The position numbers were made by a program, and so were the translations under genes. The notes beneath the pieces are model-generated. The model did not search any database. It saw only the letters and a program-made list of their open reading frames with translations, and was not told the origin of the DNA. 51,539 bases of DNA from NCBI GenBank assembly GCA_046538485.1, contig JBKHIT010000033.1, positions 1-51,539 on the forward strand, in the 5' to 3' direction. Position 1 is the stretch's first letter, and every line of letters starts with the position of its first letter. The stretch comes from Candidatus Brocadiia bacterium. GTDB taxonomy: Bacteria > Planctomycetota > Brocadiia > SM23-32. Positions 3,350 through 9,574 of this stretch are shown here, in pieces.

Positions 3350-3814
3350 TCAGCCGTCAATCCCACTGAGATTTTCCAGCACGTCCAAAGCGCATTTTAT
3401 CCGGTCGTCTTCGGGGGCCAGCACTGCGCGGATATCGGTCACCTCGTCCGGCGGTTTTGTTTCCGATTCTTTCAAGAGCCAGATTTTGGGCCAAATTTCG
3501 CTTTTATGGCCCTCCACAAGTGCGATATCGTAGGCCCCGGCTTGCGAAAGAATGGTTTTGAGTGGGGACGGCTGATGCGTCCGTTGGAAGAGCTGGGATT
3601 TGTCATATCCGATCACGTCCGCGCCGGCTTCGAACAGACGTTGTGTGTCTCTCCCTTTGGAGTCGAAAATAAGACATTCGCGGGCCCGTTTTACGGCAAG
3701 AACTCTCAGTCCCTGTTCAGTGAATTTTTCAGTGAGCTCTTCGATAAGTCGGGTCTTGCCACTGTTTTTAAAACCGCAAATCTGGAGTATCGCCGGCCTC
3801 GAGTTTTGGTTCAC
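3350..3814 (-). CDS. mobB: Molybdopterin-guanine dinucleotide biosynthesis protein B
   Basis: GFKNSGKT P-loop, D.KGRDT.RL.EAGAD, DIALVEGHK; follows moaA. Confidence 0.75.
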   Translation of the reverse strand: MNQNSRPAILQICGFKNSGKTRLIEELTEKFTEQGLRVLAVKRARECLIFDSKGRDTQRLFEAGADVIGYDKSQLFQRTHQPSPLKTILSQAGAYDIALVEGHKSEIWPKIWLLKESETKPPDEVTDIRAVLAPEDDRIKCALDVLENLSGIDG

Positions 3815-3816
3815 CT

Positions 3817-4794
3817 CTACCCCCCTATTTCGGCGACGGCTCTGTGGCGTCTTTGAACTTCGATACCTCGCTTACAGCGGAAGGCACGCCGCACGCATTG
3901 CCGCGCTTGATCGGGATCCAGAATACCTGTGCTGCGGAAGCATTTTGTGATATCGGTACCGGTATCCTGCATGAAACACCCGAAAAGGAAGCCGTGCGCG
4001 GACAGCCGCAGGCGAGTGCAATCGGCGCAGAACGGTCGCGTCTCGGGTGCAATAATGCCGAGGGTGTTGTTTTCAGGTGTGGTATAACGACGCGCCGTGC
4101 GGCCGGCTTCTCGTCCAATTTCGCTGAGGGAATACCGTGATCTGAGCGTTTTCAGAATTTCCTTCGCGGTTACGAACCACTCTACGTGATGCAAACGGGC
4201 ATGACCTATATCCATCAGTTCCAGGAAACGCGGCTCGATATCACGTTCAAAAGCGTATTCCGCAATCGGCAGAATTTGGTCTTCGTTTAGCCCCCTCAGG
4301 ACGACTGTGTTGGTTTTCAGAGGAATCAGACCGGCTTTTCGTGCAGCCTCAATACCGTCAAAGGTTGCCCGGAGGTTCCCTCCACTCATTTGTTGAAACA
4401 AATCGGGATCGAGCGCATCAAGGCTGATATTGACCCGTTTCAGCCCCTCTTGCCGGAGTTCATTGGCCAGATTGCCCAGCCGTTGTCCGTTGGTTGAAAG
4501 CGCCAGATCTATTCCCGGCAAGGCCAGAGCCTCGACCCATTCAACGATATCGTTTCGCACCAGAGGTTCCCCCCCGGTCAGGCGGATACACTTAAGGCCG
4601 AACTCTTTTTGCAGGAACTCGGCGAACGCCCGGATGCCGCCGGCCCCGAGTCGGTTGGAAGTTTCAGCGCCATTGTTGCCTTTCTCCCGGCAATACAGAC
4701 AATGCATATTGCATGCCCGGGTAATGGAGACGCGCAAAGTGCTGATCGAGGGAACGGATTTGCTCATAAAAGAAAAGCCAGAAAGTTGAGTCAA
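3817..4794 (-). CDS. moaA: GTP 3',8-cyclase MoaA (radical SAM); alternative start ATG 4767
   Basis: LRVSITRACNMHCLYC, IRLTGGEPL, VNISLD, FCADCTRLRL...C and C-terminal IGG. Confidence 0.88.
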   Translation of the reverse strand: MTQLSGFSFMSKSVPSISTLRVSITRACNMHCLYCREKGNNGAETSNRLGAGGIRAFAEFLQKEFGLKCIRLTGGEPLVRNDIVEWVEALALPGIDLALSTNGQRLGNLANELRQEGLKRVNISLDALDPDLFQQMSGGNLRATFDGIEAARKAGLIPLKTNTVVLRGLNEDQILPIAEYAFERDIEPRFLELMDIGHARLHHVEWFVTAKEILKTLRSRYSLSEIGREAGRTARRYTTPENNTLGIIAPETRPFCADCTRLRLSAHGFLFGCFMQDTGTDITKCFRSTGILDPDQARQCVRRAFRCKRGIEVQRRHRAVAEIGG

Positions 4795-4802
4795 ACGAGA
4801 TG

Positions 4803-6389
4803 CTAATCCTGCATAGTATAAGGAGACGAGGAATTCAGTTCACCCACAATTGTATCCGAACGCAGTGTACCAGGCGGTTTTCGCTTCTTCAGATTCTCCC
4901 CGGTCCGGGGCCACATTCCCAAAAGTTTTTGTGTTCCCCAAAGACTATTTATCTCGAAAACGGCTATTACTTTTTCGTAGATGTCGATCAGATTGAAACT
5001 GGCGCCGTAGGTGCTTCGCTGGTAAACGCTGCTGACGGAATTGGCGTTGGCAATGACCGTATTGCCGATTTTCGCTGCGTAGGCATGTGACGATGTTCCG
5101 GTCAGAATCAAGTCAATCCCAAAATCCACAGCTTCCCGCAGCAAATCCCCCGCGTCCTCCATCAGCCCTTTTTCTCGGGCGTGAGGGATGGGGGTTACGT
5201 TGTGATGAAAAAACAAGCCGAGAAAGTCTTCTTCCCGGGTTTCCAGGCTTTTGAAAAGCACTTTGCGCTGGGTATCCCCAATCACACCTGTGGGGGAGTC
5301 ATATTGAGATGAACACAAGCCCCGCAGCATTATATTGTCGGTTATGTACGTTTGTTCCAGTGGTCCCAGCTGCGCGGGAAACAAATCATATCCGAGATAG
5401 TTCAAATCCCGCGCGGCAGGCGTATAGACTATCGGTGGTTCCAGAAGAGGGAGATAATCCCGAGCGAGTTCATAATTTTCGCTTATTCCCTCCCGAACGA
5501 TCCCACCGCAATGCACGACAATATCGGGTTGGAGAGAATTAATTGTGTTGAGCGCGTTGTGCAGATGGTCGGCGAGAAATTTGGAGGAATTGGCAATAAA
5601 TGAATTCGACATCTGGACGATGCGTCCCAACCGCGGGCCAAAATCATAGAATGTTCTTTTTCTTCCTCGGGGGAAATTTTTTATTTTGCAGCTGCCATCG
5701 ACCCTCCTGGTTTCAACGTTCACTGTCTCCTCAGTTATTTCTATGATGTTGTAGGAGTTAAGGTCTCCGTAGCGCGTTTTCCGGCAGGAAACAGGCCCTG
5801 CATTGACAAATACGGTATCTTCAACGCGGTAGACATTGGGATAATGCCGGTGGCCCGAAAGAACGAGATCGACATCAAATCTCAGGAACATATCGAGAAG
5901 GTCGCCGGCGTTTGATAGGATATTCCGCTCGCGCCCGGCCCGGGGCGTGGGGATAGTGTGGTGATGAATGGCAACAATTTTTATGGATTTATCATGATAT
6001 TTGTGAAGAGCTTCCCGCATCATGTCGAATTTTACCTGGCCCACACGCCCATCATTGCTGTCAGCAATGGCGCTGTTAACGTAGACCACAACGGCTTCGC
6101 CGTGGACCTCCACACCGTTCACCGGGCCCACGTATTTCTCAAAAAGTGCAATTCCCCCGCTTCGAACGTCATGGTTCCCCGGGATGACAACTCTGGGAAT
6201 CTGGATGCCCTCGAGAAAATCCCGGCCCCACTCGTATTGATCGAGTTTCCCCGCCTGCGTGACATCGCCGGTGTGGAGAAGTAGATCGGACGTGCTGTCA
6301 TAAATGTCACGCTCGGCGATTTTGAGGGCTTCTTCGTTGAAATCCATTTCATCGCCGAAGTGGGTGTCCGAGATATGCAGCAGTTTCAT
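4803..6389 (-). CDS. Calcineurin-like metallophosphoesterase with tandem domains (intact N-terminal, degenerate C-terminal)
   Basis: Domain 1: ISDTH, TGDVT, PGNHD, IHHH, SGHRH; domain 2 equivalents: MSNSF, CGGIV, PAARD, FHHN, TGTSSH. Confidence 0.88.
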   Translation of the reverse strand: MKLLHISDTHFGDEMDFNEEALKIAERDIYDSTSDLLLHTGDVTQAGKLDQYEWGRDFLEGIQIPRVVIPGNHDVRSGGIALFEKYVGPVNGVEVHGEAVVVYVNSAIADSNDGRVGQVKFDMMREALHKYHDKSIKIVAIHHHTIPTPRAGRERNILSNAGDLLDMFLRFDVDLVLSGHRHYPNVYRVEDTVFVNAGPVSCRKTRYGDLNSYNIIEITEETVNVETRRVDGSCKIKNFPRGRKRTFYDFGPRLGRIVQMSNSFIANSSKFLADHLHNALNTINSLQPDIVVHCGGIVREGISENYELARDYLPLLEPPIVYTPAARDLNYLGYDLFPAQLGPLEQTYITDNIMLRGLCSSQYDSPTGVIGDTQRKVLFKSLETREEDFLGLFFHHNVTPIPHAREKGLMEDAGDLLREAVDFGIDLILTGTSSHAYAAKIGNTVIANANSVSSVYQRSTYGASFNLIDIYEKVIAVFEINSLWGTQKLLGMWPRTGENLKKRKPPGTLRSDTIVGELNSSSPYTMQD

Positions 6390-6390
6390 C

Positions 6391-6822
6391 TCACTCCCTC
6401 GAAATAAATGTCTCCAGACTGTGCCGCTGAATATCGATAAGGTCCCGGAACGTCATGATGCCTACAATTTCCTCATTGTCAGTAACGAGGACGTGTTTAA
6501 TGTTTTTCTCAGCCATGATCCGCAGAACGTCTTTCACGGGCGTTCCGATATCAGACGTGACCAAATCGCGTGTCATGACGTCACACACCGACGTCTGGGC
6601 CCCCTTCCCTTTTGCAACAACTCGTTCTTTGATGTCCCCATCGGTGAATAATCCCACGATATCCCCGTTTTCGATGACAGCGATCGAGCTTATATTGAAC
6701 TCTACCATACGCTGTGCGGCATCCTGAACAGAGCTCTCGCATTCAACTCCGATCAGCCGTTTCGTAACGAAAGCCCTTACTGGGACGTTCATATCATAGA
6801 ATCCAAGTGATCCGTCACTCAT
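6391..6822 (-). CDS. Stand-alone CBS-pair protein
   Basis: Two CBS repeats (IVGLFTDGDI, IVGIMTFRDL); RBS AAGGAGG inside the end of pgk2. Confidence 0.9.
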   Translation of the reverse strand: MSDGSLGFYDMNVPVRAFVTKRLIGVECESSVQDAAQRMVEFNISSIAVIENGDIVGLFTDGDIKERVVAKGKGAQTSVCDVMTRDLVTSDIGTPVKDVLRIMAEKNIKHVLVTDNEEIVGIMTFRDLIDIQRHSLETFISRE

Positions 6823-7702
6823 CACTTACCTCCTTTTCAATCTGCGAAATTATATCTTCCAGTATTGTCCGCAGGGAACGCTCAAAATCCATGTTGTCGA
6901 TGATGGGCACGTCGTTTTGCTCCGCCATCCGCAATATGTAGTCCTGCTGCCGGCGAATCCTGTCGATTTGCCCCACGTATCGTTCGGCTTCCCGCTGAGC
7001 ACTCTCTTCTCGAAGATGGAAGTATAGTATGTGCTGTTGTGGATCTGGGACGTTAATAACATATTGGAAAACGTAGCGAAGTTTATCTTCCAGGATCGGG
7101 CGAAGGAATCCTGGAACGATATGCACGCCGTTAAGAATCATGTGGAGGCCCTCTTTTGCCCCCCGCCGCATGACGGCGGCTATGCCTTCGCACACGAGGC
7201 TTGTTTGTTGCTCGAAAGCATAGATGAGTTTATCAGTCACAAGTGAAGTTTTCAGCACATCGCCCGCCTTGAAGGTCGATTCGTGGAGAGTTGGTATGAG
7301 TCCGGGAGATATGATGGAGCGCATAATTTCCCGAACGGTGTCGGATCCGATCACGCGATCAATGCCAAGTCGGTGCCCCAGTTCGGAGGAAATGCTTGAT
7401 TTTCCAACACCTGGTCCCCCACCGATAACAATGAAAAGCGGTTCATCGAGATATCTGATTTGCCGTCGAACACGATAGAAGCGCTCTTCTGTGCCATGTC
7501 CACGCTGAAGAAGGTTTTCGGAGATCATTTCTTTAAGCTTTCCGGACGATACTTTTTGCACTCTCCTGGTTTGAAGTATGCCCCGAATCTCCCGCACGAT
7601 TTCGTAGGCTTCACTCACGGAAAGCCCGCAGCCGGTTAGAGATTTAGCCATAATCCCTTCGGAAAACGGAAATTTCCTCTTGCCCTTCTGAACTTCAATC
7701 AT
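6815..7702 (-). CDS. pgk2: 2-phosphoglycerate kinase (ATP-cone + P-loop kinase)
   Basis: PFSEGIMAKSL, IGGGPGVGKSSISSELGHRLGI, SDTVREIMR, PTLHESTF, GVHIVPG resemble archaeal 2PGK; adjacent to cpgS. Confidence 0.88.
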   Translation of the reverse strand: MIEVQKGKRKFPFSEGIMAKSLTGCGLSVSEAYEIVREIRGILQTRRVQKVSSGKLKEMISENLLQRGHGTEERFYRVRRQIRYLDEPLFIVIGGGPGVGKSSISSELGHRLGIDRVIGSDTVREIMRSIISPGLIPTLHESTFKAGDVLKTSLVTDKLIYAFEQQTSLVCEGIAAVMRRGAKEGLHMILNGVHIVPGFLRPILEDKLRYVFQYVINVPDPQQHILYFHLREESAQREAERYVGQIDRIRRQQDYILRMAEQNDVPIIDNMDFERSLRTILEDIISQIEKEVSDE

Positions 7703-7705
7703 GAA

Positions 7706-9133
7706 TCACTCCCCATAGGCTGTCTGCGCTTCTGCGCACAGATTTACAATGGCATTTGTCAGGTTCTCGACAGTTCCCCCTGTGAGCACTGGCTTATTGT
7801 GAAGGAAAATGATTTGTACGTCTTCGTCCTGCGCGGCCTTCGCGGCGACATCGATGGAGGCGGCTTTAATTTCGGTCAGCAGAACATCAGCATTTTCGAG
7901 TCCATCACGCAGGTCTTCACGCAGCACCGGGCGATTTGAAAGATTGGTGCTAAAACCTGTTACTGTACAGTTGTATGTGTCTTCTAAGTAGTCTTTTATG
8001 TTGTCAGCAACCTTTTCCGGAGCGGTCGTCGCAACGAAAACTTTTCTGTCTGCCAAATCCCCCAAGGGTTCAGGACGGAAAACCGTCAATGCTACGTCGC
8101 ATTGTGGATTGATCCGTTGGATTCCCTCGGCGATTTTATCGACTTTGGCCGAACCGGCCATCGGAGGTTCGCACATAGTAACTACGGCGAGCTGGGAAAT
8201 CAAAATCCTGTATCGTCCCAGGAAATCGAGGATGTTTTCGAGGGGCTGACCGGCTCCTACAGTCACCAGTTTTCGGTCGGTGTGAACGGGGGCGAATGTA
8301 GCCCCGGAGCCCTCCATAATGACAAATTGCGCGGGCAATTCGTTGGCGATCTCGGCCCCTTCTATGACGTTCGAGAGAAAGGGGTTACCTCCCATTCCTC
8401 CCCCGCAACGCCGACACCCGATGGTTGGCACCTGACCGAGCAACGCATCTTCCCAGTAATCGGAGGCCGCATGGCCGCCCTGTTCCGCTACCTCAAGCAG
8501 AACCTCCGCAGTCAATTCCATTTCGCTTGCATCGACGACATCCGGATCCGGCGGGCCACCGCGGCCCATGCACACGGCGAGGGGCTGAAAACCTTTTCGA
8601 TTCAGAAGGCGTGCCACAGTGACCCCGACTGCGGTCTTGCCCACACGTTTGCCCGTCCCAATGATTCCCAGGCTCGGTTTCTTCAGAATGGTACGCATTG
8701 AAGGTGGTGTAAATATAAAGTCAGCACCCATATACGACACATTATGTGCGAGGATATGCGAAGCCAGTTCAAAACGTGTTCGGTAGTCGAGAACCGGTTC
8801 ATCGGATAGATCAATGACCAGTTCGGGCTTGGCCTCCTTAAGGACACGCCGGATAACCTGCAGGGTTTCTTCCTTTTGTTTGCCGCCCACATAGACATTC
8901 CACAATGTGGAATCGCCCCCCAGTTCTTCAACCGCATTCTCCACTTTTTCCGTTCCGCCAATGAACACAAGAGCGACGATGTTGGCCCCCTCCTTTTGGA
9001 GTTCATCAACAGTCCATTTTGTCACAGGTGGATAGTGCTCACCGTCCACCAGGCAGACGGCTTTTTTGTCAGCCAGCGTTTGGCGGAAGGCAATCGGCAG
9101 TGTTTTCGCCAGAGGAGAAGAGTTTTTTGCCAT
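7706..9133 (-). CDS. cpgS: Cyclic 2,3-diphosphoglycerate synthetase
   Basis: DGEHYPPV, DLSDEPVL, GTGKRVGKTAV, MGRGGP, HAASDYWEDAL, GCRRCGGG, EGSGA, TEIKAASIDV; ATG 9133 with GGAG upstream. Confidence 0.92.
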   Translation of the reverse strand: MAKNSSPLAKTLPIAFRQTLADKKAVCLVDGEHYPPVTKWTVDELQKEGANIVALVFIGGTEKVENAVEELGGDSTLWNVYVGGKQKEETLQVIRRVLKEAKPELVIDLSDEPVLDYRTRFELASHILAHNVSYMGADFIFTPPSMRTILKKPSLGIIGTGKRVGKTAVGVTVARLLNRKGFQPLAVCMGRGGPPDPDVVDASEMELTAEVLLEVAEQGGHAASDYWEDALLGQVPTIGCRRCGGGMGGNPFLSNVIEGAEIANELPAQFVIMEGSGATFAPVHTDRKLVTVGAGQPLENILDFLGRYRILISQLAVVTMCEPPMAGSAKVDKIAEGIQRINPQCDVALTVFRPEPLGDLADRKVFVATTAPEKVADNIKDYLEDTYNCTVTGFSTNLSNRPVLREDLRDGLENADVLLTEIKAASIDVAAKAAQDEDVQIIFLHNKPVLTGGTVENLTNAIVNLCAEAQTAYGE

Positions 9134-9574
9134 TGACGACGATCTCCAGGAATAAAAAAGCAAGATTGAAACATGATTGAGCGAGCCGGGAGAATTCCCC
9201 GATGAAATAGTGATTGTAGCGGGAGTTGGGTGACCTTGCCAGTGCGGGGAGCTTTTGCCTCGGCCAAAGAGCCTTAAATAGGCCCTGAAGCAATAAAGTG
9301 GTCTGGAGATGCCGGTTTGGCCGCGGATGCTGAGTAAGAGCACTTTATTTTTGTCACACAATCTTTGGATTGCTGGCGTGTCTCCATCTGTGGTATGAGC
9401 GCCAGGGAGAATTGTATGAATGTTGCTTTAATTTGCTTTATCGCGCTCGCGCGCGCGCAAAACTCAAAAAAGCCAAGAGAGGCATCCTTCTGACAGTGCC
9501 AGGCCCCCGGTTATGCTTTGAACAATTGCTTTTTACCTTGATTTCCCCCTCTTCCTCGTTCTATTTTGATGTCG

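Follow-up and report, generated by a model that had tools for sequence, protein, structure and literature searches.

A fused live and degenerate metallophosphoesterase in a conserved cpgS-2PGK-CBS cassette, a candidate hydrolase at the cyclic 2,3-diphosphoglycerate node

RESULTS

Gene layout at the locus

The stretch of DNA analyzed in this study (the window) comprises the 51,539 nucleotides of contig JBKHIT010000033.1 from a Candidatus Brocadiia bacterium (GCA_046538485.1), and the gene in question is an open reading frame (ORF) at positions 4803..6389 on the minus strand, which starts with ATG and encodes a 528-amino-acid (aa) protein with two successive metallophosphoesterase-type domains. 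The plus-strand reading of the same positions is full of stops. The phosphoesterase gene is the fourth in a tightly packed row on the minus strand, in the order cpgS, the gene for the synthetase of cyclic 2,3-diphosphoglycerate (cDPG); a 2-phosphoglycerate-kinase-type kinase gene (2PGK); a gene for a CBS-pair protein; and the phosphoesterase gene. The cpgS gene (7706..9133, minus strand) is recognized by a phmmer search of the PDB, in which its product matches the cDPG synthetase of Methanothermus fervidus (8ORK/8ORU) with an E value of 1.2e-136; no Pfam or NCBIfam model matched this product. The 2PGK gene (6815..7702, minus strand; 295 aa) starts 3 nucleotides (nt) past the cpgS stop codon, and its best family is the NCBIfam model NF003259, "2-phosphoglycerate kinase" (E = 1e-82), on which it scores 278 bits, under the curated cut-off of 343. 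Homologues of both members of the cDPG biosynthesis pair are therefore adjacent in the window. The gene for the CBS-pair protein (6391..6825, minus strand; 144 aa; Pfam CBS in two stretches, E = 2.6e-23) overlaps the end of 2PGK by 11 nt. Its stop codon, TGA at 6393-6391, is followed by one base and then by the phosphoesterase ATG at 6389. These stop and start positions confirm the 1-nt gap within a cpgS-2PGK operon that had been described in the original prediction, a reading of the sequence alone.

The cpgS frame remains open for 76 codons upstream of its likely ATG (window 9134-9361, minus strand). The long frame, started by TTG, has 551 aa, and its alignment with 8ORK/8ORU begins at residue 99; because the synthetase homology appears only from this residue, the TTG-started frame is unlikely to be the true ORF.

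Domain 1 of the phosphoesterase

Domain 1 (residues 1-245; 5655..6389, minus strand) carries the five motifs of a metallophosphoesterase, i.e., DTH at residue 8, (T)GD at residues 40-42, GNHD at residue 71, HHH at residue 142, and GHRH at residue 179, all of which had been claimed for it previously. The ligand residues are Asp8 and His10, Asp42, Asn72, His73, and Asp74, His142-144, and His180 and His182, and the motifs are invariant in 57 homologues. The Pfam family Metallophos (PF00149) spans residues 1-184 with 68.1 bits against a cut-off of 21.5 (E = 1.8e-18). The motifs, the profile score, and the β-sandwich fold place the protein in the calcineurin-like metallophosphoesterase superfamily, and the family to which it belongs has the additional hallmarks GNHDxR, GRxG, HHHxxPxPxxGRERN, and K/RxR. 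The AlphaFold model, which was built on 31 sequences, has a pLDDT of 86.8 and a pTM of 0.87. In this model, the best superpositions of domain 1 (residues 1-233) are on the diesterases Rv0805 (PDB accession number 3ib7) (Z-score = 26.4, RMSD = 2.2 over 222 positions, 23% identity) and GpdQ (Z-score = 26.0), the latter of which is also matched by phmmer (E = 2.1e-7). The NCBIfam model for the cAMP phosphodiesterase CpdA, NF008359, aligns with residues 32-184 (E = 7.5e-20), and its score of 71.6 bits against a cut-off of 225 leaves the protein outside that equivalog. The best partial matches in NCBIfam are cyclic-nucleotide phosphodiesterases and anti-phage phosphoesterases, all far under their cut-offs, and no curated family in the Pfam and NCBIfam searches names the whole phosphoesterase. 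The assignment to a superfamily that includes cyclic phosphodiesterases, as made in the original prediction, agrees with these results, in which the live domain lies closest to cyclic-nucleotide and glycerophospho-diesterases. Domain 1 is predicted from its sequence to be a catalytically competent binuclear metallophosphoesterase domain. The protein as a whole is predicted to be soluble, with a maximum 19-residue Kyte-Doolittle mean of 1.0.

Domain 2 and the C-terminal tail

Domain 2 (residues 253-497; 4899..5633, minus strand) is a degenerate duplicate of domain 1. The two domains share 27% identity over 241 residues in BLASTP (E = 4e-27), which is far past chance, and the pair of peptides compared in the original prediction begins at residues 141 and 394 of domains 1 and 2, respectively. 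At the positions of the five motifs, domain 2 has SNSF, HCGG, AARD, FHHN, and GTSSH, so that it lacks the metal motifs; the earlier description of a recognizable duplicate that has lost most of its ligands is accurate. Neither Pfam nor NCBIfam gives domain 2 a match of its own. The fold is nevertheless kept in the model (residues 251-506), in which it resembles a purple acid phosphatase (3zk4_B; Z-score = 21.6, RMSD = 3.2 over 247 positions). Across the 57 homologues, domain 2 is conserved at least as well as domain 1; His293, Gly295, Asp328, His395, His396, Arg405, Glu411, Asp412, Thr430, and Gly431 are invariant, and Arg327, His403, Lys407, and His435 are nearly so. The homologues cover about 94% of the query and stop near residue 497. 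The last 31 residues (498-528), which with the stop codon occupy 4803..4898 on the minus strand, are specific to the window copy and are disordered in the model (pLDDT < 50).

Conservation of the cassette

Homologues of about 500 aa with 51-69% identity occur in several archaeal and bacterial lineages, including Thermoplasmata, MSBL1, Hadarchaeia, Planctomycetota/Brocadiia, Acidobacteriota/Aminicenantes, Bradymonadales, Balneolaceae, and Bipolaricaulota, and the names of several of their sources suggest salt or soda lakes. In a scan of one genome per species, the best 80 of 199 relatives were taken and kept as 76 loci, namely 66 of the tandem type and 10 single-domain genes (246-255 aa) of Methanobacteriaceae. 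In 6 of the 66 tandem loci, the upstream flank is shorter than 150 nt, which is uninformative, and in the other 60 it is at least 777 nt. In all 60 informative loci, a CBS gene adjoins the tandem phosphoesterase (58 directly upstream on the same strand and 2 divergent). The spacer between the two genes is 1 nt in 38 of the 54 loci where it was measured and 5 nt or less in 48 of them. A 2PGK gene is found in 55 of the 60 loci and cpgS in 42 of the 55 tandem loci with enough flank, and the cpgS products are 46-60% identical between cassettes. The gene therefore belongs to a conserved cpgS-2PGK-CBS-phosphoesterase cassette present in archaea and bacteria, and the CBS protein, as the one constant neighbour of the phosphoesterase, is its tightest partner.

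Downstream of the phosphoesterase gene in the window, on the same strand (3350-4794), are a MoaA-like radical-SAM gene, whose TTG start lies 8 nt past the phosphoesterase stop and which scores 259 bits on TIGR02666 (cut-off, 284), and mobB, 2 nt further. Both were considered as members of the cassette and were rejected; no match to either turned up in the 76 related loci, and they are therefore treated as local neighbours. The cassette seems to have come to lie in front of a pair of molybdenum-cofactor genes. Base composition does not clearly mark the cassette as foreign, its G+C content being 0.50-0.52, with similar values elsewhere in the window.

Predicted complex of the phosphoesterase and the CBS-pair protein

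Since the CBS protein is the one constant neighbour, its binding to the phosphoesterase was tested in silico, with the sequences in the two alignments paired by locus. The predicted complex has a median ipSAE of 0.71 (0.68, 0.71, and 0.78 in the individual runs), compared with 0.00 for the best of three controls. The runs share at least 85% of their contacts, and the pLDDT of the partner is at least 78. Of 157 solved complexes, 116 attained this ipSAE mark, as did 2 of 215 mismatched pairs; these rates are only a rough guide here because custom alignments were used. On the phosphoesterase side, the interface is formed by the helices at residues 129-133 and 170-172 of domain 1, the linker at residues 245-248, and the strands at residues 455-463 and 476-492 of domain 2; on the CBS side, it is formed by the N-terminal strand and the C-terminal helix. 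The CBS-side interface is enriched in conserved residues (12/33 versus 14/111; Fisher p = 0.003). The model supports binding of the CBS protein to the phosphoesterase, of which it is predicted to be the regulatory subunit, and domain 2 may provisionally be regarded as the docking platform for it. Domain 2 had been taken in the original prediction for an allosteric or substrate-binding module, whereas the evidence obtained here points to a share in the docking surface for the CBS protein.

A single-domain clade upstream of cpgS

A second scan, of metagenomes, was anchored on cpgS and covered the best 80 of 413 relatives. The tandem form is present in 9 of these 80 loci, of which one is truncated by a contig end and another lacks the CBS gene. 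A further 24 loci have a gene for a single-domain phosphoesterase of about 270 aa immediately upstream of cpgS and in the same orientation. These singles match the domain 1 positions with HMM E values of 1e-65 to 1e-72 and share the family hallmarks. In bacteria, the gene order is phosphoesterase-cpgS-2PGK, sometimes with a gene for an ApgM-like mutase in front, and there is no CBS gene. In a quick tree (22 of 57 tandem sequences, 21 of 22 bacterial singles, 5 of 10 Methanobacteriaceae, and 6 of 8 other archaeal loci), the cpgS-linked singles form a clade of their own (support, 91), which groups with archaeal singles and apart from domain 1 of the tandem enzymes. The presence of two branches of the family beside cpgS, in two gene orders, argues more strongly than any other observation for a genuine functional link.

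DISCUSSION

Proposed function

We tentatively favor a function as a CBS-gated hydrolase at the node of cDPG and 2,3-diphosphoglycerate (2,3-DPG), with ring opening of cDPG by domain 1, an assignment whose probability we would place somewhat below even. The phosphoesterase would be the catalytic subunit of a soluble, CBS-gated binuclear-metal phosphohydrolase on the breakdown side of the branch that leads from 2-phosphoglycerate via 2,3-DPG to cDPG. In domain 1, two metal ions would activate a water molecule, and the cyclic pyrophosphate of cDPG would be opened to 2,3-DPG. Domain 2 would be a dead duplicate kept as a structural partner and, together with the interdomain linker, would provide the platform for the co-translated CBS-pair protein. 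Hydrolysis would be switched by a signal sensed by the CBS pair, which by analogy may be adenine nucleotides or ionic strength. The data themselves show the motifs, the fold and the two-domain architecture, the conserved cassette with its tight linkage to CBS, and a predicted interface; which substrate is cleaved, in which direction hydrolysis is regulated, and what domain 2 does are inferred. Ring opening of cDPG is favored because the nearest enzymes are diesterases, because the phosphorus atoms of cDPG, each of which bears two substituents, are diester-like, because both clades adjoin cpgS, and because the activity is a known orphan.

A cDPG hydrolase activity that is inhibited by K+ and inorganic phosphate (Pi) has been described for Methanobacterium thermoautotrophicum, as stated in passages of Roberts 2005 (PMC1224877), where the reports cited for it are Sastry 1992 and van Alebeek 1994. 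The literature searched for cDPG, its synthetase, and its hydrolase assigned no gene to this activity, which agrees with the earlier statement that the activity is known from methanogens without an assigned gene. In a literature search pairing 2PGK with phosphoesterase or CBS terms, the kinase term was absent among the matches listed.

Distribution and other evidence that weighs against cDPG ring opening

Several observations weigh against ring opening of cDPG, and most of them concern the distribution of the genes. The genomes of the 13 loci in which CBS and the phosphoesterase occur without cpgS (with at least 4.1 kb upstream) were searched with the cpgS protein or with a 12-sequence cpgS profile, which finds genuine cpgS at E = 1.7e-168. 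Twelve of the 13 have no cpgS genome-wide, and one has it elsewhere; 9 of the loci have an adjacent 2PGK, and 4 do not. Most of these genomes are metagenome bins; Gracilimonas sp. Q87 and Rhodohalobacter sp. 8-1 are isolates. The 2PGK, CBS, and phosphoesterase genes of Gracilimonas stand alone between recQ and an ABC1 kinase gene, and the kinase scores 286 bits on the 2PGK model, like that of the window. The Balneolaceae copies keep the invariant residues and nest inside the tandem clade among cpgS-linked copies in the quick tree; cpgS therefore seems to have been lost there and the rest of the module retained. The existence of such modules implies that the module can function in cells that make no cDPG of their own, unless genome assemblies are incomplete or cDPG is taken up from outside. 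Two cpgS-less Thermoplasmata genomes give weak partial matches to the cpgS profile (E = 2e-6 to 5e-6 over about 100 positions; G606:C26:2703-3011 and G607:C6:19847-20155), which were not counted. They sit in an ORF of about 454 aa, whose product may be either a P-loop protein without relation to cpgS or a remote relative.

The presence and absence of the genes was sampled in about 800 genomes from three phyla. In the phylum of the window, the phosphoesterase occurs in 0 of 300 other genomes (E ≤ 1e-30) and cpgS in 7 of 300, from which it follows that the cassette is foreign to the lineage of the window and that cpgS can do without the phosphoesterase. Moreover, 47 of the 80 cpgS-anchored loci show no phosphoesterase within the available flanks, several of which are short. 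Many of the 47 have a methanobacterial context, with a UPF0058 cluster of 21 members, 18 of which are directly upstream of cpgS. Gene order was examined in 5 of the 7 cpgS loci from the phylum of the window, and it is 2PGK, cpgS, a gene for an ApgM-like mutase (415-416 aa; PF10143), and a CBS gene in three of them (L081:528-4990, L082:4229-8629, and L084:1028-5320) and 2PGK-cpgS only in two. In the three loci with the mutase, the CBS protein is a different, weakly related one, and the phosphoesterase is absent. The idea that the ApgM-like mutase stands in for the phosphoesterase was rejected, as ApgM, the single-domain phosphoesterase, cpgS, and 2PGK occur together in L123, L124, L148, L154, and L158. 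The cpgS match of L084 lies in an 838-aa frame (L084:1028-3544), whose C-terminal part matches cpgS with 34% identity over 440 aa and whose N-terminal ~390 residues have no Pfam match; no separate 2PGK was detected, and the frame may be a fusion.

The single-domain relatives extend still further from cDPG metabolism. In a sample of 250 genomes from the archaeal phylum to which one of the Thermoplasmata bins belongs, singles (E = 1e-51 to 1e-72) are present in 58, whereas cpgS is present in 0 of 251 and a true 2PGK in the anchor genome only. Since these archaea carry the singles without cpgS or 2PGK, the family as a whole is not cDPG specific, and its ancestral job was something else. Co-occurrence of the archaeal singles with 2PGK was looked for and dismissed, the eight weak kinase paralogues (E of about 1e-21 to 1e-26) all being in phosphoesterase-less genomes. 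In the Methanobacteria phylum, cpgS is found in 263 of 301 genomes and a 251-aa single-domain relative is present; this homologue was dropped as support because the same clade occurs in the 58 genomes of the cpgS-less archaeal phylum. In Methanobacterium sp. ACI-7, it lies unlinked, about 120 kb from cpgS. The Methanobacteriaceae loci (L067-L076; e.g., L070:5683-9823) have the order tgtA, NAC, phosphoesterase, and NYN/Zc3h12a-type RNase, and the NAC and RNase context is found in all 8 of the 10 loci that have enough flank; these neighbours point to an RNA-related role of the ancestral single-domain clade. In another archaeal phylum (L168-L170; e.g., L169:4001-6821), conserved genes for proteins of about 411-422 aa and about 236 aa lie downstream of the single.

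Two further points of the same tendency concern the protein itself. The phosphoesterase side of the predicted interface is not enriched in conserved residues (8/30 versus 148/467; p = 0.78). In addition, the hydrolase of van Alebeek 1994 was membrane bound, as cited in a passage of PMC1224877, and no hydrophobic segment is found in the protein of the window, for which peripheral attachment is possible. The co-occurrence with cpgS that was proposed as a check on the original prediction is consequently found in 42 of 55 tandem loci and fails in the 12 genomes without cpgS and in the 7 cpgS carriers of the phylum without the phosphoesterase. The prediction of a cDPG hydrolase is supported in part, by the cassette context and the diesterase-type domain, and it is weakened by the cpgS-less modules and by a family that is not specific to cDPG.

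Alternative functions

The gene-context data are fitted about equally well by a 2,3-DPG phosphatase, a somewhat unlikely function in our judgment, which would strip phosphate from the product of 2PGK and, where cpgS is present, drain cDPG through the reversible synthetase. Reversibility of the M. fervidus synthetase is mentioned in passages of Roberts 2005 (PMC1224877). In the cpgS-less modules, a 2,3-DPG pool would be built by 2PGK and emptied by the phosphoesterase under CBS control, and a phosphatase alone explains these modules without extra assumptions. 2,3-DPG is the sole metabolite common to these modules and to the pairs of a single-domain phosphoesterase and cpgS in which no 2PGK was detected nearby, the 9 genomes with 2PGK-CBS-phosphoesterase loci have no cpgS anywhere, and the Gracilimonas locus is a self-contained three-gene unit with a kinase that scores like that of the window. 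A phosphatase is also favored by the more frequent linkage of 2PGK than of cpgS (55/60 versus 42/55), and it could coexist with ring opening of cDPG. On the other hand, the closest characterized relatives are diesterases rather than monoesterases, and a phosphatase beside the kinase would run a futile, ATP-burning cycle unless it were tightly gated. Accumulation of 2,3-DPG as a bacterial solute was not found in the literature searched, and in three tandem loci the phosphoesterase is accompanied by CBS while 2PGK is missing from the neighbourhood, one of the genomes having no 2PGK at all with the query used.

The link to the cassette would be regulatory or accidental if the enzyme were a general phosphodiesterase that shares the substrate of the archaeal singles, e.g., a cyclic or pyrophosphate compound derived from nucleotides or RNA. 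The hallmarks are indeed common to singles that live without cpgS or 2PGK, the Methanobacteriaceae singles lie between NAC and the NYN-type RNase beside tgtA in 8/8 informative loci, and the partial NCBIfam matches to cyclic-nucleotide phosphodiesterases and anti-phage phosphoesterases, far under cut-offs as they are, have the same tendency. We nevertheless consider this function unlikely, as two distinct clades of the family are tied to cpgS in two gene orders, and hitch-hiking is hard to credit where order and 1-nt coupling are kept over lineages of both domains. Another conceivable role is that of a biosynthetic finishing enzyme, which would act on cDPG or 2,3-DPG to yield another end product, in which case the accumulated solute would not be cDPG. 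The bacterial single-domain operons otherwise hold supply and gluconeogenic genes (ApgM-like mutase, GlpX, and transaldolase), and phosphatase genes in solute operons usually encode the last biosynthetic step. Furthermore, cDPG is known only from methanogens according to the abstract of De Rose 2023 (PMC10690619). A finishing step is highly improbable all the same, because cpgS is 46-60% identical over the cassettes and matches the characterized enzyme at about E-136, and because hydrolysis of either compound gives back pathway intermediates. We know of no such alternative end product.

Comparison with known systems

Returning to a CBS-gated hydrolase that opens cDPG, the closest enzymes are the class III cyclic-nucleotide phosphodiesterases (Rv0805 and CpdA/Icc) and GpdQ, which have the same fold and the same five metal motifs as domain 1. 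Enzymes of the Rv0805/GpdQ type are homodimers. The protein in the window differs from Rv0805, CpdA, and GpdQ in its family-specific GRERN and KTR motifs, its fused active and dead tandem, its CBS partner, and its place in a cDPG operon. The single-domain phosphoesterases upstream of cpgS belong to the same family, have the same motifs, and are likewise physically tied to cpgS; they differ in having about 270 aa, one domain, no CBS gene, and a separate clade. For domain 2, the dead metallophosphoesterase scaffolds of the Vps29 type offer a parallel, since they have the fold without metal ligands and an apparent capacity for protein binding, the latter being predicted for domain 2 from the modelled complex. 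Vps29 is an inactive scaffold, and Vps29 chains are among the Foldseek matches of the model. Unlike Vps29, domain 2 shares its chain with a live copy, and several invariant His, Arg, and Asp residues remain at its vestigial site.

The hydrolase of M. thermoautotrophicum catalyzes the same reaction as that proposed here, and its inhibition by K+ and Pi, as described in the passages cited above, would suit a gated enzyme. That hydrolase, however, is defined by activity alone in these passages and is membrane bound in one report, whereas the protein of the window is predicted to be soluble, and Methanobacteria carry only the unlinked single-domain relative, whose clade also occurs in cpgS-less archaea. 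Control of a phosphoanhydride hydrolase by CBS domains has a precedent in the CBS-PPases, which are family II inorganic pyrophosphatases, as described in the abstract of PMC7226116; the catalytic fold of these enzymes is unrelated, and the CBS domains are inserted in the chain there, in contrast to the separate, translationally coupled protein here.

Implications

The phosphoesterase belongs to a known superfamily, within which its architecture is new, and the comparative evidence on its candidate function is mixed. As a more far-reaching and unlikely possibility, the CBS protein and the tandem phosphoesterase may together form a holoenzyme that serves as a salt- or energy-gated release valve for a pool of diphosphoglycerate solute and represent the first cDPG hydrolase gene, with the self-contained 2PGK-CBS-phosphoesterase cycle of the cpgS-less Balneolaceae accumulating 2,3-DPG and not cDPG. 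If this is true, the polyanion 2,3-DPG would serve Balneolaceae as a previously undescribed bacterial solute or phosphate store. As an extremolyte, cDPG is sought after and can be prepared enzymatically (PMC12136491). Its synthesis genes are known and structurally solved, while a gene for its breakdown, an activity described in the 1990s, was not found in the literature searched, and the cassette provides a concrete pair of proteins for expression and assay on this orphan activity. The distribution of the cassette further suggests a use of cDPG or 2,3-DPG by archaea of salt lakes, and by bacteria as well, beyond the methanogens of hot springs.

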